Shown here piece after piece: positions 74 through 15,732 of a DNA stretch of 16,540 nucleotides. A program made the position numbers and the translations under genes. The notes beneath the pieces are model-generated. The model was given only the letters and a program-made list of their open reading frames with translations, had not been told where the DNA came from and made no database searches. Source of the stretch: a virus; IMG/VR virus record IMGVR_UViG_3300045988_070840. The stretch is one strand, 5' to 3'. Position 1 is the stretch's first letter. Every line of letters begins with the position of its first letter.

Positions 74-253
74 CTATTTATACTTGCAATGAATATAATA
101 CAGGACGCATATACCGCATACTACTATTAATGTTGGGTTGCTCGCGATTGCATCAATAATCGCGGCTATTATTTGTATAGCTGTAGTAAAGAAGTCTCCT
201 AACGTGTTAGCGATGTTATATACAGCTGTGTGAAGTTGTTCCGTGGTGGTCAT
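74..253 (-). CDS. Small hydrophobic (membrane) protein, 59 aa, not in the ORF track
   Basis: The minus-strand ATG is at 253..251, preceded by AAAGGAAA 6 nt upstream. Translation is MTTTEQLHTAVYNIANTLGDFFTTAIQIIAAIIDAIASNPTLIVVCGICVLYYIHCKYK, with two hydrophobic stretches. The stop TAG (76..74) abuts the ITR. A perfect consensus promoter lies upstream. Confidence 0.6.
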   Translation of the reverse strand: MTTTEQLHTAVYNIANTLGDFFTTAIQIIAAIIDAIASNPTLIVVCGICVLYYIHCKYK

Positions 254-271
254 GTCATTTCCTTTCGTTTG

Positions 272-391
272 GTGTACCTTGATTATAGATTAGTAGTGTA
301 CCGCTGTCAACTGTCAATCTTGCGCAAGTGAAAAATAATACTATATGTAGGAATTATGAAGGTACACGGCCATACTTGCAATCAGGTACAC
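272..391. promoter_or_regulatory. Four (A)GGTACAC boxes arranged symmetrically in the divergent promoter region (candidate operators)
   Basis: GTGTACC occurs at 272..278 and 296..302. GGTACAC occurs at 361..367 and 385..391. The outer and inner pairs are both centred on 331/332. One box sits inside the -35/-10 spacer of each divergent promoter. Confidence 0.5.
282..310 (-). promoter_or_regulatory. Leftward sigma-70/sigma-A type promoter, perfect consensus
   Basis: On the minus strand: TTGACA (310..305), a 17-nt spacer, then TATAAT (287..282). A second TTGACA lies at 317..312, one base further upstream. It drives the 74..253 ORF. Confidence 0.75.
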
Positions 392-404
392 AACCGTGTA
401 TATT
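376..404 (+). promoter_or_regulatory. Rightward early promoter
   Basis: TTGCAA (376..381), a 17-nt spacer, then TATATT (399..404). The predicted start near 411 lies downstream of the GTG at 409 used by the ORF track. Confidence 0.65.
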
Positions 405-1250: not shown

Positions 1251-1511
1251 ATGGCACGCAACACGATTCAAAAGAAGTTCACCAGCACGGAGGTAAGAGG
1301 GTACGTCATTAAGGACGGTCAGCCCGTGCAGGTTACCTATCAGCTTGACAAGAAGTGTGGACTGAACACCGCGCAATCGCTCATTCGCAAGCAGACGCCT
1401 AGCTTTTCAGCCGTTGAGGTTGTGGAGAATGAGCAGTTATATAAAATGACTTTTGAAGATTTCAAGAAGTACGGCACACGCTGCGATGCTTCGGAAGATG
1501 ACGAGGACTAA
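1251..1511 (+). CDS. Hypothetical early protein (86 aa) with an acidic C-terminal tail
   Basis: The ATG at 1251 follows AGAAAGGA. The protein ends in ASEDDED. Its position upstream of the SSB/TP/polymerase genes suggests a replication accessory or DNA-binding role, but this is unproven. Confidence 0.6.
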   Translation: MARNTIQKKFTSTEVRGYVIKDGQPVQVTYQLDKKCGLNTAQSLIRKQTPSFSAVEVVENEQLYKMTFEDFKKYGTRCDASEDDED

Positions 1512-1564
1512 CACGCCAAAACGTGTAGCGTAAGGTACTCCGCCCATGAATGAAAGGAACGAAA

Positions 1565-1978
1565 ATGGAGAACGAACTTTCGACAATCACCAACGATGCG
1601 CCCGAATTTTCACGCGGGATGTATTGCTCAATCCATGCGGAGACGCAAGAGGACAGGTTGGACATTTACGAGGCTGTTTCTAACTCCCTCTCTCTCGATG
1701 ACATGGTGGGGAAGGTCGTGGAGGTTGAGAACGTCATTATTCAGCCCGTGGAAATGACCGACAATGTGACGGGTGAGATTATGCAGCGCAACCGCATCGT
1801 GCTTATCACCCCGAAGGGCGATGCCTACGGGTGCACTAGTACGGGCGTTGAAACCTCGATGAAGAACCTTTTCAGTATCGTAGGTTGCCCGCCGTGGAAT
1901 CCCGCAATCAAATTCGAAGTTGTGAAGAAGCAGGGGCGCAACGGGTACAAGTTCACCAGCTTGCAGCGCCACAAGTAA
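1565..1978 (+). CDS. Putative single-stranded DNA-binding protein (phage SSB-like, 137 aa)
   Basis: The ATG at 1565 has AAAGGAA 5 nt upstream; the track start at 1550 has no RBS. The pattern VGK..EVENV.IQPVE..D..TGE...RNRIVLI.P.G.AY.C.S.GV..S...L resembles, from memory, the Lactococcus-phage-type SSB family. The gene occupies the phi29 gene-5 position, just before TP and DNAP. Confidence 0.45.
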   Translation: MENELSTITNDAPEFSRGMYCSIHAETQEDRLDIYEAVSNSLSLDDMVGKVVEVENVIIQPVEMTDNVTGEIMQRNRIVLITPKGDAYGCTSTGVETSMKNLFSIVGCPPWNPAIKFEVVKKQGRNGYKFTSLQRHK

Positions 1979-2047: not shown

Positions 2048-2863
2048 ATGACCAAGGCTAACGAGAACGCCCGCGCCCGTGTTGCGGATGCAGAACGGAG
2101 GGCGCGGCGCAAAATCAAGAGATTGCAGAACAAGGGCGTAAGAACGGGCGGGATTAGTCCATTTCGCGACGTTGACGAATCGAATACAAGGGAATTGAAA
2201 CGCTACGCGCGGGATTTAGAGCAGTTCGTTTCACGTTCTACAAGGTTCGTAGCAGGGCGAGACGGCACGCCTATACCGTACACCGCTTATAGGGACTACA
2301 AGCGCATTGAAAGGCAATGGAACAAGGAGCACAACAGATATTGGCAGAAGTTCGCGCAACATCCGTTTTTGACCGCATACGGCGAAGCTGATATGACGTT
2401 AGGACAACGGAGCGCGGTATCACACGTTAAAGGCTTGCCATTTGGTAATATCGGCTATCAACGTGAGTTATTGCCTGAACAGATAAGAAGCGTTAATGAT
2501 TTGGAGCAGCGCAAGAAGATTCTAAAACGGGAACTATCCCGCTCATTTCAACGCAAGCGGATTACGCAGCTACGTAAGAGCCTTCTGGAACATGCCGCGA
2601 CGTTTAATGACCCTCGAATCCCCAACATGATTAAGAAGCTGTCAAATGAACAGCTTTTTGCATTACAGAATTTTACCAATTTTGTACCTCTTTATTACCG
2701 CTATATCAATACGGACAGGGATAACGTAATGGGCGCACAGGCTGATGCTATGGATGATGAAGCGCAGAAAGAGCATATGGTTCTTACCATTCAGCAGGTA
2801 CAGAATCAATACCCCAAGAAGGCGGCACGAAAACGCAAGCGTAAAAACAAAAAACGTAGGTAG
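2048..2863 (+). CDS. Putative terminal protein (271 aa)
   Basis: The RBS is GGAGGTG. The gene lies immediately upstream of, and tightly packed against, the protein-primed DNAP, as in phi29 gene 3 then gene 2. The size is close to phi29 TP (266 aa). The N-terminus (RRARRKIKR) and C-terminus (KKAARKRKRKNKKRR) are both strongly basic. Sequence similarity was not verified. Confidence 0.6.
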   Translation: MTKANENARARVADAERRARRKIKRLQNKGVRTGGISPFRDVDESNTRELKRYARDLEQFVSRSTRFVAGRDGTPIPYTAYRDYKRIERQWNKEHNRYWQKFAQHPFLTAYGEADMTLGQRSAVSHVKGLPFGNIGYQRELLPEQIRSVNDLEQRKKILKRELSRSFQRKRITQLRKSLLEHAATFNDPRIPNMIKKLSNEQLFALQNFTNFVPLYYRYINTDRDNVMGAQADAMDDEAQKEHMVLTIQQVQNQYPKKAARKRKRKNKKRR

Positions 2864-2865
2864 CT

Positions 2866-4578
2866 ATGGATTACGTAGCAGATTTCGAGACGACCACAGA
2901 TGTAAATGATTGTCGCGTTTGGGCGTGGTGTGTTTGTGAGATTGATAACCCCGACGCACTAAGCTGTGGAACGAACATTGCAACATTTCTTGATTTCTGC
3001 AAGGTGCATGGCGGTACATATTATTTCCACAACGCTGCTTTTGACTGTGAGTTTATTCTGTGCTACCTGCTTACCAACGGATTTGAGTACAGTGAGAAGG
3101 CAAAAACAAAGACGTTCAAAACGCTTATATCTAGCATGGGCAAGTTCTATCAGATGCAAGTATGCTTTGAGAAGAAGGGTAAGAAGAAGGCTATTACCTG
3201 CACATTCAAAGACAGCTTGAAAAAACTCCCCATGAAGGTATCGCAGATTGCAAAGGCTTTCGACCTCCCCATATCCAAGTTGGAGATTGACTATACGGAG
3301 TACCGCCCCATAGGTCACGAGTTGACACCGCAGGAACGAGACTACATCAGGAACGATGTTCAGATTGTCGCACAGGCATTGCGCCAACAGTTCGGCAAGG
3401 GACTTACGAGATTGACAATTGGAAGCGACGCGCTCAACGGGTACAAGGACATAATCGGTTCAAAGTGGGATGATTGGTTCCCAAAAATTCATATCGAAAT
3501 GGATGCGATGATACGCAAAGCGTATCGTGGCGGGTATACCTATGCGAACCCTATCTATCAATCCGATGCAGACCATGAGGACAGATTGCAGGGCAGTGGT
3601 TCAGTATATGATGTGAACAGTCTGTACCCCGATGTTATGTACCATCGCCCCTTGCCGATAGGGCATCCAATTTATTTCAAAGGGTGCTATAAGGACAATC
3701 CCCAATATCCCCTTTATATCCAATTCCTAACATGCCATTGCAAGTTGAAACCAAACCACCTCCCCACATTGCAGATAAAGAACAACCCATTTTATTCGGA
3801 GACGGAGTATATACATGACACGGAGGGCACCGTTGACTTGGCTTTGACCAACATTGATTTGGAAATACTCATGCAGCAGTATGATGTTACGGTTTTCTCT
3901 TATAACGGCGGTTACATGTTTGAGCAGGCTACGGGACTGTTCAAAGAGTACATTGATTATTGGATGCACATAAAGGAGACAACCACAGGCGGTTTGAGAC
4001 AGCTTGCAAAGCTAATGCTCAACTCGCTTTACGGGAAGTTCGCAACCAACCCCGACGTTACGCCGAAGATTCCGTATCTGAAAGATGATGGAAGCGTGGG
4101 TTACAGATTGGGGGACAAAGAGACACGTGACCCTGTTTACACACCTATGGGGTGCTTCATTACTGCATGGGCAAGACATAAGACCATAACCGCCGCACAA
4201 AGCGTGTATGATAGGTTCATGTATGCGGACACTGATAGCATACATGTTTTGGGTACTGAACCAGTACAGGGAATTGAAGTCCATCCTACGCACCTTGGTG
4301 CTTGGAAACACGAGAGCAATTTCAGCATGGCTAAATATATCAGGGCTAAAACGTACATGGAAAGAATCTATCAGGTTGGCAAGATGGTTGATGGCGAATA
4401 CAGAATGGTTGACGTTCAGCCGTTCGATGACGTTAAGTGCGCAGGTATGCCAGAGGAATTGAAGCGCATGGTTACGTTCGACAGTTTCAAAAGGGGCTTG
4501 CAACTTCATGGGAAGTTGAAGCCAAGGCACGTTAGGGGCGGCATAGTGCTTGAGCCTATAACGTTCACGCTCACCTGA
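2866..4578 (+). CDS. Protein-primed family-B DNA polymerase (phi29 gp2-like, 570 aa)
   Basis: Exo I is DFETT, Exo II is HNAAFDCEF and Exo III is YIRNDV. Motif A is YDVNSLYP, motif B is KLMLNSLYGKF, motif C is YADTDS, and a KxY motif (RAKTY) is present. Confidence 0.97.
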   Translation: MDYVADFETTTDVNDCRVWAWCVCEIDNPDALSCGTNIATFLDFCKVHGGTYYFHNAAFDCEFILCYLLTNGFEYSEKAKTKTFKTLISSMGKFYQMQVCFEKKGKKKAITCTFKDSLKKLPMKVSQIAKAFDLPISKLEIDYTEYRPIGHELTPQERDYIRNDVQIVAQALRQQFGKGLTRLTIGSDALNGYKDIIGSKWDDWFPKIHIEMDAMIRKAYRGGYTYANPIYQSDADHEDRLQGSGSVYDVNSLYPDVMYHRPLPIGHPIYFKGCYKDNPQYPLYIQFLTCHCKLKPNHLPTLQIKNNPFYSETEYIHDTEGTVDLALTNIDLEILMQQYDVTVFSYNGGYMFEQATGLFKEYIDYWMHIKETTTGGLRQLAKLMLNSLYGKFATNPDVTPKIPYLKDDGSVGYRLGDKETRDPVYTPMGCFITAWARHKTITAAQSVYDRFMYADTDSIHVLGTEPVQGIEVHPTHLGAWKHESNFSMAKYIRAKTYMERIYQVGKMVDGEYRMVDVQPFDDVKCAGMPEELKRMVTFDSFKRGLQLHGKLKPRHVRGGIVLEPITFTLT

Positions 4579-4591
4579 TAGGAGGTAACAT

Positions 4592-4759
4592 ATGATTGAG
4601 CGTAGCTTTAGGATTGATGAAGTGATGTACGAGCAGCTTAAAGAAATAAGCGAGCGAGAGAATCTACCCGTTTCCTATCTTGTTCGCGTTGCGATTTCGC
4701 AGTTTTTGAACGCCTATTCCGATTCGATTGATTTGGTGAAAATGAACGCGAGTGCTTGA
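4592..4759 (+). CDS. Ribbon-helix-helix (CopG/Arc/MetJ-type) transcriptional regulator, 55 aa, not in the ORF track
   Basis: The RBS is GGAGGT, 6 nt before the ATG at 4592. Translation is MIERSFRIDEVMYEQLKEISERENLPVSYLVRVAISQFLNAYSDSIDLVKMNASA. It shows a beta-strand (RSFRID), helix A, a turn (LPVS) and helix B, which is the RHH signature. The stop TGA (4757..4759) lies inside the first AGTGCTTGAC repeat. Confidence 0.75.
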   Translation: MIERSFRIDEVMYEQLKEISERENLPVSYLVRVAISQFLNAYSDSIDLVKMNASA

Positions 4760-4778
4760 CAGTGCTTGACAGTGCTTG
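4751..4778 (+). repeat. Three direct AGTGCTTG repeats at exact 10-bp phasing (candidate operator array)
   Basis: AGTGCTTGAC AGTGCTTGAC AGTGCTTGTG occupies 4751..4780. Copies 1 and 2 each contain a TTGACA. A fourth AGTGCTTGA lies at 4544..4552, about 40 nt upstream of the RHH start. Confidence 0.8.
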
Positions 4779-4794
4779 TGAAGTGACATATATT
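4766..4794 (+). promoter_or_regulatory. Late-operon promoter
   Basis: TTGACA (4766..4771), a 17-nt spacer, then TATATT (4789..4794). A duplicate TTGACA sits 10 bp upstream at 4756..4761. Confidence 0.7.
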
Positions 4795-4800
4795 GGCTAT

Positions 4801-4968
4801 GGTGATACCCAATCCGTCTGGACGATGACCGATGCGGGGTTGCTACGGGTGATACCGCCCGCACGAGTGCGAGCCGCATTAGCAGCGGCGGCGTTTCGGG
4901 AATGGCAATATCACCAGCACAGTCAGCCCTTGCCACGGTCACAACCAGATGGCGGGGGCTATTTTGTT
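4801..4968 (+). ncRNA. Candidate structured non-coding RNA or leader (pRNA-like candidate)
   Basis: About 168 nt lie between the predicted start of the 4766..4794 promoter and a terminator-like hairpin. The hairpin pairs 4925..4935 with 4950..4960 (11 bp including 2 G.U) and is followed by ATTTTGTT. There is no RBS-preceded ORF. Self-complementary segments are dense: GGTGATACC occurs twice (4801, 4848) and can pair with TATCACC (4909..4915), and GCCGC-ATTAGCA-GCGGC lies at 4873..4889. Confidence 0.35.
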
Positions 4969-4981
4969 GAAAGGAGAAGGA

Positions 4982-5335
4982 ATGAACCTAGAGGAGTTGC
5001 TTGCATGGATTAGCGAGCGCATGGAGGCTAGTGAGTACGCCACCGCAGAGACGCTATTGAAGGACATGGAGAAGCGGGCTGCCGACTTTGACGAGTACCG
5101 CAGTTCTTCGGAAGCGCGAATGAGCGAGTACGCAGCTAACGAGGAAGAGATGAAGTCAGAGATTCAGTCCCTTAAAGCCCGCAATTATGACCTGCTGATG
5201 CAGGTACCTGCCGACAACAGCGGGGACAATGATGGTGACGGTGCGGTTGTTGAGGACGTTGACGATGATGGAACAGTGTACCACATCGACAGTCTTTTCA
5301 CCGATGATAAGGAGGATGGAAACAATGGCAATTAA
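4982..5335 (+). CDS. Scaffolding protein (phi29 gp7-like role, 117 aa)
   Basis: The ATG at 4982 follows GAAAGGAGAAGG. The protein is small, very acidic and predicted helical/coiled-coil. It lies directly upstream of the capsid gene and overlaps it by 11 nt. Confidence 0.65.
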   Translation: MNLEELLAWISERMEASEYATAETLLKDMEKRAADFDEYRSSSEARMSEYAANEEEMKSEIQSLKARNYDLLMQVPADNSGDNDGDGAVVEDVDDDGTVYHIDSLFTDDKEDGNNGN

Positions 5336-6770
5336 GACGGTTAAAACCCTGAACGCGACGAACGCAGAGATTTTGAACGCGATTCGCACTGATGCTTCGT
5401 TCGCGTATCAGCAGCGAATCCCTGCCGCCACGCAGGGAGACATTACCGACACGGTGAACAACCTGCTTGAATATCGCCCGATGATGAATGAGTTTATCGA
5501 CGCGCTTGTGAACCGAATCGGCGACGTGGTTATCAAGAGCAAGGTTTGGACTAACCCGCTTGCGCAATTCAAGCGTGGAATGATGCAGTACGGTGAGACT
5601 ATCGAGGAACTTGCAACCACGTTGCTGCAAGCCAAGCGTTATGACCCTAACAAGTCCTATGATGATGTGTTCGCTTGCAATCCGCCCGATGTTATGAGCA
5701 ATTTTCATAGCATCAACCGTCAGGATTTTTATGAGCTTACCATTAAAGATGTGCTTCTGCGTCGTGCTTTCCTTACCGATTATGGTCTGCAAGACCTCGT
5801 TGGGCGCATCATGGAAACGCCGTACACGTCTGATTATTGGGACGAATACTTGATTATGCGCAACCTGTTTGCGACGTACGCGAGCATCGATGGATTCTAC
5901 AAGGTGCAGGTGCCCGACGCTTCAGCAGCGTCCACCCGTTCGCAGAAGCAGGATGACGCGATGGCAATAACGGAAGCCGTGCGCTCGATGGCTGGAAAGA
6001 TGCGCTTCCTTTCTGGTCAGTACAACGCCGCTGGTGTTCCCACGTTCACGAAAAATGATGAACTTGTTCTGTTTGCCACGCCCGAATTTGTGGCGATGCT
6101 TGACGTGAACGTTATCGCGTTCGCGTTCAACGCATCCGCAGCAGATTTAAAGATGCGAGTTGTCGAAATTGACGATTTCGGAATTGACGGCTGCCAAGCC
6201 ATTCTGTGTGACCGAGGTTTCTTCATGTGTGCGGACACGCTGATTGACTTTGAGAGCATCCGCAACCCGAAGGCGATTTCGTGGAACTATTGGCTGCATC
6301 ACCACGGGATTTACTCTGTGTCCCGATTCGTTAATGCCGTTATGTTCACTACGGAAGCAGGTACTAGTGTAAGTGTCCCTGCCATTGAGGCAACTGGTGT
6401 TACGCTTGATTATGCGGTGGTTGACGGAGTGAAACCCGCTTACGCAGAGCGCGGTGGAAAGACGCGCCTTATCGCCACTGTTAATGGCACCGTAACGCCC
6501 AAGACGGAGGGGTACACGGTTCCGCAGGGCTGCACGTTCGCAATCACCGCGAACAACACGGGTGTTAATAGCGGCGGCGTTCGGTTGAAGCTGGGCACGT
6601 TCGTGGATGCCGAGGGCGTGCTGCACGTAGCCGAGGATGAAGTTGCGGAGAACGTGACTGTTACCGCGACCAGCACCTATATCAACCCGACGGTTTCGAT
6701 GGGCGAGCAGGAGTACAAGCACAATGGTTTGATTATCGGCATTGACAAGGCGTACACGCCCGCAGGTTAA
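5325..6770 (+). CDS. Major capsid protein (phi29 gp8-like, 481 aa) with a C-terminal Ig-like domain
   Basis: The ATG at 5325 follows AAGGAGGA. N-terminal segments (NAIR, LVNRIGDVVIKSKVWTNPLAQFKRGMMQYGETIEE) parallel phi29 gp8 as I remember it (NAIR, LVDRIGLVVIRQ..NNPLKKFKKG..GRTIEE). The C-terminal ~100 aa is beta-rich, as in the gp8 BIG2-like domain. Confidence 0.9.
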   Translation: MAIKTVKTLNATNAEILNAIRTDASFAYQQRIPAATQGDITDTVNNLLEYRPMMNEFIDALVNRIGDVVIKSKVWTNPLAQFKRGMMQYGETIEELATTLLQAKRYDPNKSYDDVFACNPPDVMSNFHSINRQDFYELTIKDVLLRRAFLTDYGLQDLVGRIMETPYTSDYWDEYLIMRNLFATYASIDGFYKVQVPDASAASTRSQKQDDAMAITEAVRSMAGKMRFLSGQYNAAGVPTFTKNDELVLFATPEFVAMLDVNVIAFAFNASAADLKMRVVEIDDFGIDGCQAILCDRGFFMCADTLIDFESIRNPKAISWNYWLHHHGIYSVSRFVNAVMFTTEAGTSVSVPAIEATGVTLDYAVVDGVKPAYAERGGKTRLIATVNGTVTPKTEGYTVPQGCTFAITANNTGVNSGGVRLKLGTFVDAEGVLHVAEDEVAENVTVTATSTYINPTVSMGEQEYKHNGLIIGIDKAYTPAG

Positions 6771-6780
6771 GGAGTATGAC

Positions 6781-8952
6781 ATGGCACAAGATTTCCCTGG
6801 GTTGCCAGAGAACATCTATGAATATGAGAACAGGTTTAATTATTCGGTATGGACACCGAACACTACCATTCTCATGTGCAACGTGCCGTGGGATTCTTCG
6901 TATCGCGATGTGGTGCGCTTTGATTCCGACAAGGAGCGGGATGCTTATTTTGCATCCCGCACATCCGATGGCTATGCGTTCACGCTTAATGGGCTTGTAT
7001 ATCTGCGATATGGTGAGCCTGTTCGCGTGAACGCGCCATTTGATATGGTTACACGTTGCAACTACATGGTTGTTAAGAACTCTATGCAGCCTATATCGCC
7101 AACAGAGGGCAGACAGCCCGATGTATTCTATTATTTCATTAACGACGCAAAGTATCTTGCGCCGAACACTACGCAGGTAAATGTGCAGCTTGACGTGTGG
7201 ATGACCTATTACGGCAGAATCAACTTCAACCTCTGCTATGTGAACAAGGGGCACATAGGCATCGCCAACGAGAACAGCACTATCGACAACTTATCGGACT
7301 ACTTGACCGACGCCGAGGGATTGAACATAGGAGACGAGTACGAGATTGCAGACATTGCAATCGACAACTTTCTCAACGAGCCGCCGTACATCGTCCTCAT
7401 GTGCACGGCTGATTTGACGGCGGGATTCGGCACAGTGTCCAACCCGACGCTCAAGACGGCTACAGGCTCGATAAACGACGGCATGCCATCTGGCTCTGCG
7501 GTGTACGCTTGCAACAGCGAGAACTTCCTCGCTCTGATGGGGAAGCTGCAAGATGCGCCCTGGGTCTCGCAGTGCATCAGCATGGTGACGGTTGTGCCAG
7601 CCCGATTCGTGCAGAACGCGACGAATACGACGGTAGCGGGCATAGATATGCTCACCATGCCCGACAACCCTGCTGAGAACATCAGGTCGCTGGACGTTCC
7701 GAACGTAATGGGCATGTTCCATATTCCAGAGCGCTACAGGAATCTCTTGAAATTCTACACGTCGCCGTATTGCGTGATAGAGATGACGGGGTACAACGGC
7801 GGAGAAGTCGTGATGAAGCCCGAATGCTTGGAACTTGACAATGACGGTGGGATTTCAATCCTCACCAACACGGTCGTCGCGCCGCCTGATATCCGCGCCT
7901 ACTCTTACGTTGCGGGCTACAATACGGCGAACGGCGTCGGCGGCAGCGTCGATGCGGACTACTATCTTCCGAGCGGGGGAGACCCGTTCCCTCATTCGGA
8001 GTACAACGAGGAGGGGCTGGACATTGCGGTTCAGTTCAGCAACTTTCCGCAGTTTTCGCTTGTGAACAATCAGTACATATACTATTTGGCGTCGAACAGG
8101 AACAGGCTCGCGTACCAGTTCGCCGCTGCGGACTGGTCGCAGCAGAAGTCGCTCACGGCGGCGCAGCTCTCGTTCAACCAGAGCGGCGCGAACATGCAGA
8201 ACGCTTGGGCGAACCAGCAGGTCGCGAACCAGGCGAACTGGGCTTTGAGCGGCATCTCGCAGGAGAAGAACCTGTGGAGCGGGGCTACGTCCATGGCATC
8301 GTCCGGGGTGGGCGCTTTGGGAGCCGGTTTGTCTGGAAACGCAGGCGGTGCGGCGGCGGGCGTCGCCAACATGGCTCTTGCAGGTGCGAACACCGCGCTG
8401 AACGCCGACTGGATTAACAGGACTACCGCGACGCAGGTGGGAGCGGCTACCGCAACCACGCAGAACAACATCGGCTTGCAGGGATACATCAGGGACACGA
8501 ACTACGATTACGCAGTGTACGCCGCGAACGGGGATTACGAGACTGCCATACAAGGCATACAGGCGAAGGTTCAGGATGCGCGGCTCACGCAGCCGTCCAC
8601 CTCTGGGCAGAACGGCGGCGACGCGTTCAACTTCTGCAAGGGCTACATGGGAGTGCGTTTGAAGTTCAAGCGGCTGAAGCCGAACTTCATGCGCCAAGTC
8701 GGCGACTTCTGGCTGCGGTACGGATACTACGTGAACCGCTGGATTGTCCCGCCCGCCGACTTGAAGTGCATGGAGAACTTCACGTACTGGAAGATGCAGA
8801 GCGTCTCTCTTGACTCTAGCGAGGTTCCCGAGCTGTTCAAGGAGAGCATCAGGGGCATTTTTGAGAAGGGCGTGACAGTTTGGAACGACCCTGATAAGAT
8901 GTACAAGGTTGATTTAGCGGACAACGAGCCTGTGAAGGGAGTGCGTTACTGA
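6781..8952 (+). CDS. Tail knob / distal tube protein (phi29 gp9-like, 723 aa)
   Basis: The ATG at 6781 follows AAGGAG with a 6-nt spacer. The N-terminal region (ILMCNVPWDSSYRDVVRF ... FYYFINDAKYLAPNTTQVNVQLDVWMTY) parallels phi29 gp9 as I remember it ([20 protein letters not shown] ... [31 protein letters not shown]). Gene order matches phi29. Confidence 0.85.
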   Translation: MAQDFPGLPENIYEYENRFNYSVWTPNTTILMCNVPWDSSYRDVVRFDSDKERDAYFASRTSDGYAFTLNGLVYLRYGEPVRVNAPFDMVTRCNYMVVKNSMQPISPTEGRQPDVFYYFINDAKYLAPNTTQVNVQLDVWMTYYGRINFNLCYVNKGHIGIANENSTIDNLSDYLTDAEGLNIGDEYEIADIAIDNFLNEPPYIVLMCTADLTAGFGTVSNPTLKTATGSINDGMPSGSAVYACNSENFLALMGKLQDAPWVSQCISMVTVVPARFVQNATNTTVAGIDMLTMPDNPAENIRSLDVPNVMGMFHIPERYRNLLKFYTSPYCVIEMTGYNGGEVVMKPECLELDNDGGISILTNTVVAPPDIRAYSYVAGYNTANGVGGSVDADYYLPSGGDPFPHSEYNEEGLDIAVQFSNFPQFSLVNNQYIYYLASNRNRLAYQFAAADWSQQKSLTAAQLSFNQSGANMQNAWANQQVANQANWALSGISQEKNLWSGATSMASSGVGALGAGLSGNAGGAAAGVANMALAGANTALNADWINRTTATQVGAATATTQNNIGLQGYIRDTNYDYAVYAANGDYETAIQGIQAKVQDARLTQPSTSGQNGGDAFNFCKGYMGVRLKFKRLKPNFMRQVGDFWLRYGYYVNRWIVPPADLKCMENFTYWKMQSVSLDSSEVPELFKESIRGIFEKGVTVWNDPDKMYKVDLADNEPVKGVRY

Positions 8953-9851
8953 TGGGAAGGAACCGCAAGGGAAAGCGCAACACGTGGCAGTCGGCCGAGA
9001 TGAACAATCTTCAGTACCGCATGTACTACGAGCTGCTTGAGCAGATGGCTTGCGCGATATACCGATGGGAGGGCTTGCCAGCGGAGATTGACCAGCGATT
9101 CTTGGAGCTTACGCTTTTCAATCGCGGTATGAGCGTGTTTTTCTGGGATGACGAGTACGACGCTTATTTCTCAACTATGGGCGCGCCGTCTGGGCAGATT
9201 AACATGTACCAGAATCCGTTGGCGTACATTGCGTATGGCACAAATGGGTTTCATCGCCGCTTGAAGTCAACGGAATGTGTCCCGATATGGAACAACTACT
9301 TGCGCCGCCCCGACATTAACGCCATGCGCATATACGCGCGTCGCCTTGCAGACATTGACAGAACCGTGGACGTGAACCTTATGAGCCAGAAAATGCCAAT
9401 CTTTGCGGTTGTTCCTGAATCGCAGAGGTTGACCATTCAGAACCTTATGAAACAGTACGTGGGCAACGAGCCTATTATTGTTGGCGCTGATGGGATGTTC
9501 GACCCGTCGCAGATAACGTATCTCAATTCTGGTGCACCGTTCATCACGCCAGAGCTGCTCAAAGCCAAGCAGACCGTGTGGTCAGAGATAATGACGTACT
9601 TTGGAATCGAGAACACTAACATAAGCAAGGCAGAGCGAGTGCAGAGCGCAGAGGTGGAAGCGAACAATGGGCAGATTGAAGCGAACAGGCTTATCCGCCT
9701 TAATTGCAGACGGGAAGCGTGCAGGCAAATCAACCGTAAATACGGTCTTGAAGTTTGGTGCGACATGAACAAGGATGTTTCTACCGACAATATGAACACG
9801 CTTCTTATGGTTGACCCCGAGATTCAATCGGAAGGGGGCATGGGGCTATGA
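8952..9851 (+). CDS. Portal / head-tail connector (upper collar, phi29 gp10-like, 299 aa)
   Basis: The protein is collinear with phi29 gp10 as I remember it: a basic N-terminus (MGRNRKGKRN versus MARKRSN), YRWEGLP versus FEWENLP, TVWSEIMTYFGI.N versus AVWNEMMTFLGIKN, and REACRQINRKYGL versus REEACEKINELYGL. Confidence 0.95.
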   Translation: MGRNRKGKRNTWQSAEMNNLQYRMYYELLEQMACAIYRWEGLPAEIDQRFLELTLFNRGMSVFFWDDEYDAYFSTMGAPSGQINMYQNPLAYIAYGTNGFHRRLKSTECVPIWNNYLRRPDINAMRIYARRLADIDRTVDVNLMSQKMPIFAVVPESQRLTIQNLMKQYVGNEPIIVGADGMFDPSQITYLNSGAPFITPELLKAKQTVWSEIMTYFGIENTNISKAERVQSAEVEANNGQIEANRLIRLNCRREACRQINRKYGLEVWCDMNKDVSTDNMNTLLMVDPEIQSEGGMGL

Positions 9852-12073: not shown

Positions 12074-13345
12074 ATGCCCACAACCAGAGCCATATGCTAT
12101 TATGCGATGTACGTCATAGGCGAGGTGGAGTCCGAGTGGGACTGGACAGCCGTGTATTACAGCGACCCTATCACGATAGGCATGATGCAATGGTACGGTA
12201 CGCGGGCGGCAGCCCTCCTCAACCGTGTCAAGGACGAGACGCCGACTGCCTACGGGGGGTTGGCATCCTCGCTGCGCTCCGACCTCGAATCGCACGATGC
12301 GGGCAGCACGTGGTGGAACAGCAGGTACCTCAACAGGGACGAGGGAAACAGCATCATATCTGTTTTCCAAGAGGAAGAAAACCACGTCATTCAAGAGAAT
12401 CAGGCCATCGCAGACTTCGAGGGCTACATCTCGACGCTCGAAAGCTGGGGCATGAGCCAGTCCTACCCTAAGACGCTGATTTTCGCGATGAGCATGTACC
12501 ATCAATCACCAGCAAGCGCAGGACAGGTCATTGCAACGGCAGGTGGTAGTGCAGACCTCGATAGGATTCACACCGTTTGCATGAACCATGGAGTTCTTGG
12601 GCAGTACAGAAACCGTTACAATACCGTGTACCAGAGATTGAAGGATTGGGATGGCGAGAGTGCCCCGCCTGATTTTGGGCAGAGCGGGGACGTTGACACA
12701 ACGCCTGGGGGCAACGAGCAAGGTATCGGAACAGGTGCGAGCAAGCTGGGCTATATCATTCAGAACGGAGACATGCTTGTCCTTTACGGCAAGGACGAGT
12801 ACAAGAACGGCGTCATATTCTATCCCGCGTCTGGACAGGTCTGGGTAAACGGATACAACGCTGACGGAACTGATATTGGCGGCGGCAACGAAGGCGGCGG
12901 TTCTGAAACAGGAAGTGAAGCACAGAATGCGATATGCAATTTGTACCGTTCGTGGCTTGACAAGTTTGCGTATTCACAGGGCGCTGGACGGCTCGACCCC
13001 GTTAGCAGCGGTTACGGCGACTGCTCATCGACGATTTGGTTCGCGTACCAGCAGGTTGCGGGAATAGACGTGGGGACGTGGACGGGAGACATGGCCGACA
13101 AGGGGGAGAGGATAGCCAGCGGGAACTCTTCTGACAACCTTCCCATTGAGGACATGGAGCCAGCCGACCTGGTTCTTATCATGTGGCGCGGATGGAACCC
13201 GTCGTTCGACCACGTGGAGCTGTATATGGGGAACAACGAGCTGTGGGGGCACGGTGGACCAGACTACGGACCAGACCAGACCACGACGGATGCGAGGAGC
13301 TACCCACGGCGCATGTACTACTGGGAGGTGAGACGGTACCTATGA
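12074..13345 (+). CDS. Tail-associated peptidoglycan hydrolase (phi29 gp13 position): N-terminal tail-lysozyme-like domain plus C-terminal NlpC/P60 peptidase
   Basis: The N-terminus reads GEVESEWDW...ITIGMMQWYGTRAAALL, an E...GxxQW pattern of the tail-lysozyme fold. Gly-rich linkers are present (GGNEQGIGTG, GGGNEGGGSETGS). The C-terminus has YGDCSSTIW (catalytic Cys), PADLVLI and DHVELYMG (His), matching NlpC/P60. Confidence 0.8.
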   Translation: MPTTRAICYYAMYVIGEVESEWDWTAVYYSDPITIGMMQWYGTRAAALLNRVKDETPTAYGGLASSLRSDLESHDAGSTWWNSRYLNRDEGNSIISVFQEEENHVIQENQAIADFEGYISTLESWGMSQSYPKTLIFAMSMYHQSPASAGQVIATAGGSADLDRIHTVCMNHGVLGQYRNRYNTVYQRLKDWDGESAPPDFGQSGDVDTTPGGNEQGIGTGASKLGYIIQNGDMLVLYGKDEYKNGVIFYPASGQVWVNGYNADGTDIGGGNEGGGSETGSEAQNAICNLYRSWLDKFAYSQGAGRLDPVSSGYGDCSSTIWFAYQQVAGIDVGTWTGDMADKGERIASGNSSDNLPIEDMEPADLVLIMWRGWNPSFDHVELYMGNNELWGHGGPDYGPDQTTTDARSYPRRMYYWEVRRYL

Positions 13346-14367
13346 GCGAGAGCATGTACTACGATGCACACGATATCATGACGCGGAACGCCATGTTCAA
13401 CTTCGTCATCGGCGGGCGCGGAACGGGAAAGACGTATGACTTCAAGTACAAGCGGATAAGGCATTTCATCAAGACAGGCAAACAGTTCATCTACCTGCGC
13501 AGGTACAAGTCGGAGTTCGACGACAAGCAGGAGTTCTTTCAGGATATTGTTGACCGCTTTCCATCGTGGGAGTTCAAAGTTGAGGGAATGAAAGGATACA
13601 TCAGAAAGGTTGCAATAGGTGATGAAAAGCCAGAGAAATGGCGTGTGCTATGTTTCTTCATCACGTTGGCAAACGCGTTGACCAAAAAGTCTGTACCCTA
13701 TCCCGACGTTGATATGATAGGATTTGACGAGTTCATAATTGACAAGGGTTCGCTACACTACTTGCAAAACGAGTTGAAGCAGTTTCAAGACTTCTACAAC
13801 ACGGTTGACCGATTTCAGGACAGGGTTAAGGTAATGTTCATGGCTAACGCCGTCGCACTGACTAACCCATACTTCATCGGATGGAGATTGAAGCCGAGAA
13901 AGGGTAAGCGCTTTCTCATGGCACACAAAGGGTACATGTGTGTTGAGATTGTGCAGAGCGAAAATTTTAGGGCGCACGTTGACAAAACTAGGTTTGGCCA
14001 GATGATACGTGGAACGTCATACTACGATTATGCAGTTGGCAACATGTTCTATGATGACAACGACAAGTTCATTGCCAAGAAGTCGGAGGAAGCGAGATTC
14101 TATTTCGCACTCCGATTCGACAACAGGACGGTTGGCGTGTGGGTGGACTACACGGAAGGTGTGTACTACGTTTCACGCAGGTATCCGAAGGATGCGCTGG
14201 TTTACGTCTTGACGAAATCGGACATGCAGCCTAACCTGCTTATGATAGAGAAATCGAGCGTGGTGCTGCGGAGCGTGCGAAAGCTGTACATGCAGGGAAG
14301 CGTGTTCTTCGACACGATTGAAACGCGAGAGTTCTTCAACAACGTGTTCGACTATCTGGGATTCTAG
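13342..14367 (+). CDS. DNA encapsidation ATPase (phi29 gp16-like, 341 aa)
   Basis: An ATGA overlap links it to the upstream stop. Walker A is GGRGTGKT and Walker B is DMIGFDEF. The size is close to gp16 (332 aa). The start is the ATG at 13342, not the track start at 13183. Confidence 0.9.
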   Translation: MSESMYYDAHDIMTRNAMFNFVIGGRGTGKTYDFKYKRIRHFIKTGKQFIYLRRYKSEFDDKQEFFQDIVDRFPSWEFKVEGMKGYIRKVAIGDEKPEKWRVLCFFITLANALTKKSVPYPDVDMIGFDEFIIDKGSLHYLQNELKQFQDFYNTVDRFQDRVKVMFMANAVALTNPYFIGWRLKPRKGKRFLMAHKGYMCVEIVQSENFRAHVDKTRFGQMIRGTSYYDYAVGNMFYDDNDKFIAKKSEEARFYFALRFDNRTVGVWVDYTEGVYYVSRRYPKDALVYVLTKSDMQPNLLMIEKSSVVLRSVRKLYMQGSVFFDTIETREFFNNVFDYLGF

Positions 14368-15444: not shown

Positions 15445-15732
15445 ATGACCAAGCTATTCTACTCGTACCGCGATGGGCAGGTGTACATGCTACACAAGTA
15501 CTGTCCGTTGGAGCTGCTCATGGACGAGCAGATAAGCGGCGGAGACGGTCTTCTGATTTACGCCAGCGAGGAAAAGTTTGAGATTGTGGAGTACATGAAC
15601 GGAAAGGAAACAGGTTACACAACCAAGGTGCGCCCGAGAACAGCCGAACCGCTGAACGTGGTCATGTTGACGAAGGTGGGAGAGAACAGCCGAACCGCTG
15701 AACGTGGTCATGTTGACGAAGGTGGGAGATAA
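15445..15732 (+). CDS. Hypothetical protein (95 aa); its 3' end is altered by a 46-bp tandem duplication
   Basis: The ATG at 15445 follows GAAAGGAA. The last ~15 codons are the second repeat copy read in a shifted frame. Confidence 0.6.
   Translation: MTKLFYSYRDGQVYMLHKYCPLELLMDEQISGGDGLLIYASEEKFEIVEYMNGKETGYTTKVRPRTAEPLNVVMLTKVGENSRTAERGHVDEGGR
15636..15729 (+). repeat. Perfect 46-bp tandem duplication (2.04 copies)
   Basis: 15636..15681 is identical to 15682..15727, with the unit GAGAACAGCCGAACCGCTGAACGTGGTCATGTTGACGAAGGTGGGA. Identity continues 2 nt further. The period is not a multiple of 3. Confidence 0.97.

Follow-up and report, generated by a model that had tools for sequence, protein, structure and literature searches.

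A structured RNA at the early/late junction of a phi29-like phage genome: a candidate counterpart of prohead RNA next to a repeat-bearing promoter

Which element matters where three direct repeats, a promoter and a small gene overlap in the virus record IMGVR_UViG_3300045988_070840? The record, here called the window, is a stretch of DNA of 16,540 nucleotides (nt). Its perfect inverted terminal repeats of 73 nt and its gene set of phi29 type (DNA polymerase, SSB, capsid protein, tail knob, connector, ATPase) identify it as a complete phi29-like phage genome (16.5 kb); the close relatives stem from human gut metagenomes. An earlier note on this DNA had proposed that a ribbon-helix-helix (RHH) protein, encoded just upstream of the structural genes, binds the repeats and switches early to late transcription. 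Our answer is a different one. The comparative data make it rather probable that a conserved RNA of about 170 nt, transcribed from the strong promoter at this site, is the counterpart of the prohead RNA (pRNA) of phage phi29, and that the repeats are slippage duplications.

The RNA is predicted to start 6-10 nt past the -10 element of the promoter. From about position 4801 to the ribosome-binding site of the scaffold gene the sequence is nearly invariant among relatives, though the flanking genes have diverged. In lineage L050 the identity to the window is 93% for the RNA, 76% for the polymerase, 75% for the scaffold gene and 69% for the RHH gene. The length of the main domain, domain I, varies from 114 to 119 nt across all lineages. 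Its fold consists of a closing helix, a small hairpin, a helix with a one-sided bulge that leads into the 'E' hairpin, and a second, 'D' hairpin (Table 1). A linker connects it to domain II, a hairpin with a U-rich tail that is probably a leaky intrinsic terminator. This terminal hairpin is found in every lineage, with 9-12 bp, differing sequence and energies of -17 to -29 kcal/mol; its tail is U-rich to a varying degree, weak in several lineages, and the Shine-Dalgarno (SD) sequence of the scaffold gene comes next.

The fold is backed by covariation. RNAalifold, applied to 17 sequences, yields 25 base pairs, with 93.5% of all cells paired; controls with slid partners reach 32-45%. Compensatory changes are seen in 14 of the 25 pairs, as compared to 4.8 +/- 1.4 in shuffled data, and none out of 500 shuffles attains 14. 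R1, a covariance model built from these data, picks up the RNA at 13 further loci searched, with E-values from 1e-13 to 1e-25. It does not detect L054, L055 and L086-L091, whose RNAs were compared by eye and folding only. The pairs of the D hairpin and of bulge and loop were analysed by script, since MAFFT alignments lose the register of this hairpin. The minimum free energy (MFE) fold of the single sequence 4795-4985 is a rod; it pairs the wrong copy of GGUGAUA and was overruled by the comparative data. A possible long-range pairing between the small-hairpin region and the loop of domain II, also part of the window's MFE fold, holds in the close clade only.

Other identities of this region were sought. 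No reading frame stays open across lineages, which includes the open reading frames (ORFs) 4756-5013 on the plus and 4664-4942 on the minus strand. Neither a tRNA nor a tmRNA was found at the locus, Rfam returned nothing there at its gathering thresholds or at E <= 1, riboswitches included, and among GenBank phages the RNA had no blastn match.

A further feature is the relation between the bulge and the loop of the D hairpin. In 10 of 11 lineages the two are complementary and change together. The window has UGCUA in the bulge and UAGCA in the loop; the corresponding pairs are GCUA/UAGC in L036, UGCCA/UGGUA in L045, CCC/GGG in L038, UUGCC/GGCAA in L047, UGCCA/UGGCA in L048, ACGC/GCGU in L051, UGAUA/UAUCA in L052, GCCA/UGGC in L082 and UUGUGA/UCACAA in L086. 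The pairing of cognate bulges and loops amounts to 49, that of permuted ones to 35.9 +/- 2.9 (P = 3.5e-5). The RNA of L089 and L091 (1838-1989 in L089) has a closing helix, a bulged helix and a 3' hairpin; its bulge AAGCAA resembles its loop UAGCAG, and both are complementary to UUGCUU in the closing strand.

The topology matches that of phi29 pRNA. On phi29, the Rfam consensus (RF00044) begins with a closing helix. Next come a helix whose 9-nt bulge is confined to the 5' side and a 4-bp hairpin with a 6-nt loop, which abuts the return strand. After another 3 nt the second hairpin is reached, and then the closing strand. The window RNA has the same order of helices, the same 5'-only bulge, a hairpin with a 6-nt loop and a second hairpin. 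In phi29 the bulge AACC pairs with GGUU in the second-hairpin loop of a neighbouring molecule; bulge and loop of the window RNA are likewise complementary. Like phi29 pRNA, the window RNA is predicted to measure about 170 nt, with a 3' hairpin that is set off from domain I by a single-stranded linker. In phi29, 117 nt of domain I, 13 of linker and 44 of domain II add up to 174 (PMC5066667); the predicted lengths in the window are 115 and 9, and 45 for hairpin plus tail.

The genomic setting agrees too. In phi29, p6, SSB, p4, terminal protein, DNA polymerase, small genes, promoter A1 and pRNA are aligned in one direction. The order in the window is p6-like protein, SSB, terminal protein, DNA polymerase, RHH protein, promoter and RNA. 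The phi29 pRNA, too, is served by a sigma-A promoter of its own, located past the DNA polymerase gene. Because the gene order matches, the window promoter corresponds to A1, the pRNA promoter, and not to the late promoter A3. As in phi29, genes for a connector (gp10 type) and an ATPase (gp16 type) are present in the window. The N-terminus of its connector, MGRNRKGKRN (window 8952-8981), is highly basic and comparable to the MARKRSN segment of phi29 gp10, which is implicated in pRNA binding. The N-terminus of phi29 gp10 has been studied in its own right (PMC1636484).

The two systems are not identical. The window RNA is a collinear leader of the late operon, while phi29 pRNA lies at the genome end, and the loop of the 'E' hairpin, GUGA(A/U)A, is conserved in the window RNA family, unlike in phi29 pRNA. 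Several observations weigh against equating the two RNAs. RF00044, which scores 145 bits on phi29, finds no match in the window at E <= 1, and R1 in turn does not match phi29 pRNA. The closing helix has 12 bp in the window as compared to more than 20 in phi29, and the extra small hairpin makes the junction of the window clade a four-way one. The L089/L091 RNA lacks complementarity of bulge and loop, and elsewhere this pairing could be an intramolecular pseudoknot. A cis-regulatory attenuator would have the same appearance, that of a late-operon leader bearing a terminator-like hairpin. As to the repeats, the close clade comprises 17 distinct promoter variants, of which 0-3 show changes in the second copy, which lies in the spacer, and 2-9 in neighbouring spacer columns; this higher conservation may indicate a lineage-specific operator, yet homogenisation of the repeats by slippage could be an alternative source.

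How far does the element extend? In the distant L086-L088 clade the RNA has a long closing helix and a three-way junction; the hairpin loop GUGAUA is kept, and the RHH stop codon lies within the 5' end of the RNA. L054 has a structured gap after a small Cys-rich ORF. In Curtobacterium phage Pize (L164), R1 matches the bulge and the hairpin arm with E = 8e-4, and the bulge GCAA stands opposite UUGC of the next hairpin loop. The Hungatella phage CH17P1 (L165) has a post-polymerase gap of 235 nt with a promoter TTGACA-17-TAACAT and a long closing helix; CGG-GGUGAAAU-CCG and a GCUA/UAGC complementarity are recognised in this gap, and R1 scores just 7.7 bits. There the packaging ATPase gene follows the RNA, and neither an RHH gene nor a separate 3' hairpin is present. 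Promoter and RNA without any RHH are also seen in L082 and L084. From this distribution, the RNA appears as the constant element of the locus and the small protein as exchangeable or dispensable.

Arthrobacter phage Mendel (Anjalivirus) has the layout of the window: the DNA polymerase is followed by gp9, annotated as 'ribbon-helix-helix DNA binding domain protein', a non-coding gap of 172 nt, a small gene and then the major head protein. Its RHH protein is too diverged for tblastn, and the fold of the unannotated gap differs in detail from the window RNA. The gaps of the three cultured phages (CH17P1, 13576-13810; Pize, 3937-4110; Mendel, L163, 4934-5105) are all non-coding, unannotated and 170-235 nt long. 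They follow polymerase or RHH genes; promoter-like sites are recognised in them, and their folds are related to that of the window RNA.

The RNA is preceded by a promoter of the sigma-70/sigma-A type. It scores 11 of 12 and is the second-best site genome-wide. Among 15 sequences scanned, nine have a promoter of at least 10/12 with a -10 ending 6-10 nt 5' of the RNA start. In ten lineages the TGA within the -35 element (TTGAC or TTGAT) doubles as the stop codon of the RHH gene. The promoter TTGACA-17-TATATT had been recognised in the earlier note, with the second repeat as its -35; it was found as described, and its position is conserved in relatives. To call it simply the late promoter falls short: no other promoter is seen for the structural genes, but its first product would be the conserved structured RNA. 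Between RNA and scaffold gene there is no room for a separate promoter, nor did the promoter scan yield a match.

The comparison with phi29 p4, also drawn in the earlier note, does not hold. Like the window RHH protein, p4 is a small early protein encoded near the junction of early and late genes. The RHH protein, however, shows no homology to it. Protein p4 binds upstream of a late promoter that has no -35 and recruits RNA polymerase, whereas the window promoter has a consensus -35, which is conserved in relatives. Also, the window genes are collinear, in contrast to the divergent arrangement at phi29 A2b/A2c/A3. Since both -35 and -10 are near consensus, no p4-like activator would be needed, and in L082/L084 and CH17P1 the promoter persists without RHH.

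The positions of the elements discussed are compiled in Table 1.

Table 1. Coordinates of the genes, signals and predicted RNA elements in the window (position 1 is its first letter)
Feature	Position	Strand	Remarks
p6-like double-stranded-DNA-binding protein	1251-1511	+	
phi29-type SSB	1550-1978	+	
Probable terminal protein	2048-2863	+	
Protein-primed DNA polymerase	2866-4578	+	Pfam DNA_pol_B_2 2.7e-77; PHROG 1907 3e-161
Isolated AGTGCTTGA copy	4545-4553	+	inside DNA polymerase ORF, codons ATA GTG CTT GAG (I V L E)
Shine-Dalgarno AGGAGG of RHH gene	4580-4585	+	kept in relatives
RHH protein gene, 55 aa (MIERSFRIDEVMYEQLKEISERENLPVSYLVRVAISQFLNAYSDSIDLVKMNASA)	4592-4759	+	TGA stop 4757-4759 in repeat copy 1
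Tandem repeat AGTGCTTGAC, 2.8 copies	4751-4778	+	Tandem Repeats Finder: period 10, 100% match
Sigma-70/sigma-A type promoter TTGACA-17-TATATT	4766-4794	+	-35 4766-4771, -10 4789-4794
RNA domain I, 115 nt	4801-4915	+	RNAalifold, pair counts, covariance model
Domain I, closing helix	4801-4807 with 4909-4915		continued 4809-4811/4903-4905, 4814-4815/4899-4900
Domain I, small hairpin	4816-4829		
Domain I, 'C' helix	4830-4838 with 4858-4865		CGAUGCGGG with CCCGCACG
Domain I, one-sided bulge GUUGCUA	4839-4845		7 nt, 5' side
Domain I, 'E' hairpin CGG-GUGAUA-CCG	4846-4857		abuts return strand
Domain I, 'D' hairpin	4869-4894		contains GCCGC-AUUAGCA-GCGGC; loop AUUAGCA 4878-4884; 3 nt after return strand
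Linker, 9 nt	4916-4924		
RNA domain II	4925-4969	+	AGCCCUUGCCA (4925-4935) with UGGCGGGGGCU (4950-4960), then AUUUUGUUG (4961-4969)
Scaffolding-like coiled-coil protein, first late gene	4982-5335	+	SD 4970-4976 directly 3' of RNA
phi29-type major capsid protein	5325-6770	+	next after scaffold gene
gp10-type connector	8952-9851	+	Pfam Phage_connector 3e-56
gp16-type packaging ATPase	13342-14367	+	PHROG 2150 1.9e-80; match starts at residue 54 of ORF 13183-14367

The DNA polymerase shares 48.7% identity with phi29 gp2; the closest polymerase of a cultured phage is that of Hungatella phage CH17P1 (53%). The genes for tail knob, lower collar, holin and endolysin are also on the plus strand. Close to the right end, a perfect tandem duplication of 46 nt (15636-15727) lies within a 95-aa ORF (15445-15732). 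Between the genes for SSB and terminal protein there is a terminator-like hairpin at 2009-2025, GGGCGAAATGCCCGCCC followed by TTTCTG, which could reduce transcription of the terminal protein, polymerase and RHH genes by attenuation. A weak match to SorX of Rfam on the opposite strand is due to this hairpin.

How might the locus work as the site of a prohead RNA? The early replication operon (p6-like protein, SSB, terminal protein, DNA polymerase, RHH protein) ends right at a strong host-type promoter, the -35 of TTGACA-17-TATATT being fused to the RHH stop codon. Host RNA polymerase would initiate around 4801 and make the structured RNA first. Its bulge GUUGCUA would pair with the loop AUUAGCA, probably that of a neighbouring molecule, so that a ring would be built on the portal. 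A fraction of the transcripts would be halted at the terminal hairpin and its U tail, whereby a pRNA-like RNA is released, and the remaining ones would read through to the scaffold, capsid and tail genes. Such read-through is likely because no other promoter is available. Transcripts of the early operon may also enter the RNA region, since no terminator is seen between the RHH gene and the promoter. The sequence features, their conservation, the secondary structure of the RNA and the covariation of its loops are shown; the transcription start, termination and read-through, the packaging function of the RNA and the role of the RHH protein are what we infer.

A wider claim we would favour by a narrow balance: that there is a prohead RNA family outside the Bacillus Salasmaviridae, common to gut phi29-like phages of the Clostridia type and to actinobacterial ones; that in the window this RNA forms the 5' leader of late-operon transcripts, so that the ratio of packaging RNA to structural mRNA is set by a single promoter together with a leaky terminator; and that the RHH protein is an accessory modulator of the promoter.

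What, then, is the RHH protein? With 55 aa its ORF falls below the usual cut-off of 60 aa. It had been picked out by its pattern, and this assignment is borne out: RHH_1 of Pfam scores 26.9 bits (cut-off 20.5), RHH_3 25.6 (cut-off 21.6), and PHROG 3180, 'Arc-like repressor', is matched with 1.2e-10. These searches return RHH families only, and RHH_1 also matches nine of 15 positional homologues. The AlphaFold2 model, computed from the single sequence as a monomer, has a predicted local distance difference test (pLDDT) score of 84; residues 1-9 are non-helical, and helices comprise residues 10-23 and 27-53. The RHH strand forms in the dimer alone. The best Foldseek matches of the model in the PDB are CopG, PutA, CdbA, NikA, AmrZ and Arc, all with weak E-values of 0.3-1. 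Compared to relatives, synonymous prevail over non-synonymous codon differences (18:3, 13:4 and 3:0). The gene is syntenic between the polymerase and scaffold genes in lineages down to some 40% RHH identity. A second RHH type occupies the slot in the L086-L091 clade, the polymerase of which is only 48-50% identical. A tblastn search of GenBank phages with the RHH protein gave no match. In the distant relative L054 the slot (2791-2967) is held by a 58-aa Cys-rich, zinc-ribbon-like ORF that is not an RHH.

By its sequence, the gene is a real one for a small DNA-binding protein of the Arc/CopG type. With the Arc, Mnt, CopG and omega repressors the protein shares the size, the sequence pattern of an N-terminal strand followed by two helices, the origin from a phage and the adjoining promoter. 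It differs in that the direct repeats beside it are not conserved and in that its helix 2 is long, reaching the C-terminus in the AlphaFold2 model. Most likely it acts as a repressor or modulator. An activator role is argued against by the near-consensus promoter, which is present without RHH in other lineages. A promoter-region motif common to all RHH-bearing lineages was sought, and only the -35 and -10 proved to be shared.

Conceivably, though with a clear minority of the weight, the RHH protein acts on other promoters, be it to shut off the divergent early promoters at the left end or to autoregulate the replication operon. Phage RHH repressors of the Arc/Mnt type do act on other promoters or autoregulate, and the left-end control region (254-452) contains an operator-like array of GGTACAC/GTGTACC. 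As an operator of the RHH protein, however, this array was rejected, as the two do not go together: L063, L080, L078 and L088 all bear an RHH gene but lack the array. Nor was any other motif found that all RHH-bearing lineages have in common.

The left end deserves a description of its own. Of its two divergent promoters, TTGACA-17-TATAAT (310..282) points leftward and TTGCAA-17-TATATT (376..404) rightward. The GGTACAC/GTGTACC sites at 272, 296, 361, 385 and 409 are placed in their spacers and +1 regions, and this layout recurs in L072 with four sites. The array looks like the operator array of an early regulator. Because of a 27-nt inverted repeat (261-287/399-425), both divergent early leaders start nearly alike, ...CACCAAACGAAAGG, including the ribosome-binding site. 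The leftward promoter, a consensus one, serves the sole leftward gene (74-253, minus strand), which encodes a hydrophobic protein of 59 aa.

It is rather doubtful that the RNA is a cis-acting leader, i.e., a riboswitch-like or protein-dependent attenuator, the hairpin of which gates the late genes and the bulge and loop of which form an intramolecular pseudoknot. Of course, the first late gene comes directly after the RNA, the hairpin and U tail of which end a few nt 5' of the ribosome-binding site, a separate late promoter is missing, and there is no match to known pRNAs at the level of sequence. A conserved antiterminator pairing is, however, not seen: closing helix and terminal hairpin belong to two distinct modules with a linker between them, and the sole candidate for an alternative pairing, UGGCAA/UUGCCA, is lost in most relatives (UCGCCA). 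The U tail is weak in several lineages, and in CH17P1 the related RNA precedes the packaging ATPase gene without a separate 3' hairpin. Moreover, no riboswitch of Rfam matches, and topology, size and post-polymerase position are those of phi29 pRNA.

We return to the repeats. In essence the earlier note had described them correctly. Tandem Repeats Finder confirms the exact spacing of 10 bp, AGTGCTTG starting at 4751, 4761 and 4771; the RHH stop codon lies within the first copy, as noted, and TTGACA occurs in the first two copies (4756-4761 and 4766-4771). The second copy supplies the working -35, the third (TTGTGA) is part of the promoter spacer. The 8-mer is expected 0.5 times per genome by chance; three head-to-tail copies are thus not a chance event and reflect a tandem duplication. 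At up to two mismatches, AGTGCTTGAC is not enriched genome-wide and is absent from other promoters.

The copy number varies. Two copies, AGTGCTTGACAGTGCTTG, are found in 15 of 15 close IMG/VR relatives and in 26 of 27 related metagenome contigs, i.e., in 41 relatives in all; the remaining contig, L114, has three. Since the spacer background of L114 differs from that of the window, the third copy must have been gained at least twice. Being an exact tandem copy, it leaves the C-terminus of the RHH protein (ASA, then stop) and the core TTGACA-17-TATATT unchanged. In L014 the copies are degenerate. L016, L017 and L050 retain just GCTTGACAG, yet the first ten residues of their RHH protein, MIERSFRIDE, which comprise the DNA-reading strand, are identical to those of the window. 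The repeat is wholly missing from L037, L036/L053, L045, the L038 group, L047, L048, L051 and L052, which keep RHH gene and promoter; in total, ten or more lineages have the gene and the promoter without the repeat. This is a pattern that the earlier note itself had named as one that would overturn its model.

A fourth copy upstream of the RHH gene had been considered as a further regulatory site. It exists, albeit at 4545-4553 rather than 4544..4552 and inside polymerase codons. The residues IVLE encoded there belong to the C-terminal motif GGIVLEPITFTLT (stop follows) of the polymerase, which is homologous to GGVVLVDDTFTIK (stop follows) of phi29. In L007-L015 this copy reads AGTGCTCGAA, with CTT changed to CTC and GAG to GAA, both synonymously, and the promoter repeats are retained; it drifts like plain coding DNA.

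The most likely source of these patterns is replication slippage, which duplicated the -35 region in units of 10 bp; neither protein nor core promoter is altered by the extra copy of the window genome. Judged from the alignments, the array is probably a copy-number accident, possibly a neutral product of slippage. A doubled -35, TTGACAGTTGACAG, is also seen at 305-317 (minus strand) upstream of the perfect leftward promoter and represents a second duplicated -35 in the genome.

That RHH dimers bind the phased AGTGCTTG repeats cooperatively, use the upstream copy for looping or autoregulation and so switch the late promoter in analogy to p4, is improbable, and the repeats are an unlikely RHH operator. 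Some RHH proteins do bind tandem direct repeats, e.g., omega of plasmid pSM19035; a real RHH gene adjoins the promoter in many lineages, copy 2 is steadier than its surroundings in the close clade, and the second RHH of L086-L091 and the Cys-rich ORF of L054 in the same slot are compatible with a local regulator. But the repeats are missing where RHH gene and promoter persist, even in L050 with its identical DNA-reading strand, the third copy is private or recurrent slippage, the upstream copy evolves like plain coding DNA, promoter and RNA occur without RHH, and a repressor made early would oppose the change from early to late transcription at a promoter that needs no activator.

The RHH-and-repeat part of the finding is ordinary; its lesson is that phased repeats across a promoter, however striking, may arise neutrally by slippage. 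The RNA is another matter. The literature searched describes pRNA for phi29 and related Bacillus phages only. A review of 2024 considers it unique to these phages according to current knowledge (PMC11476376), and a search for new pRNAs with Infernal, published in 2025, used the pRNAs of Bacillus phages as its only seeds (PMC12670572). For the actinobacterial and gut relatives, neither the reviews nor the genome records annotate the gap. Hungatella phage CH17P1, Curtobacterium phage Pize and Arthrobacter phage Mendel are cultured and make the claim directly testable. If it is true, a second pRNA family, unrelated in sequence but of the same topology, with covarying ring-forming loops and present in gut and actinobacterial phi29-like phages, would provide comparative data on what is essential in a pRNA; the GUGAAA loop, the pairing of bulge and loop and the variable length of the closing helix are candidates. 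It would also offer new self-assembling RNA scaffolds and would mean that RNA-dependent packaging motors are widespread in phi29-like viruses.

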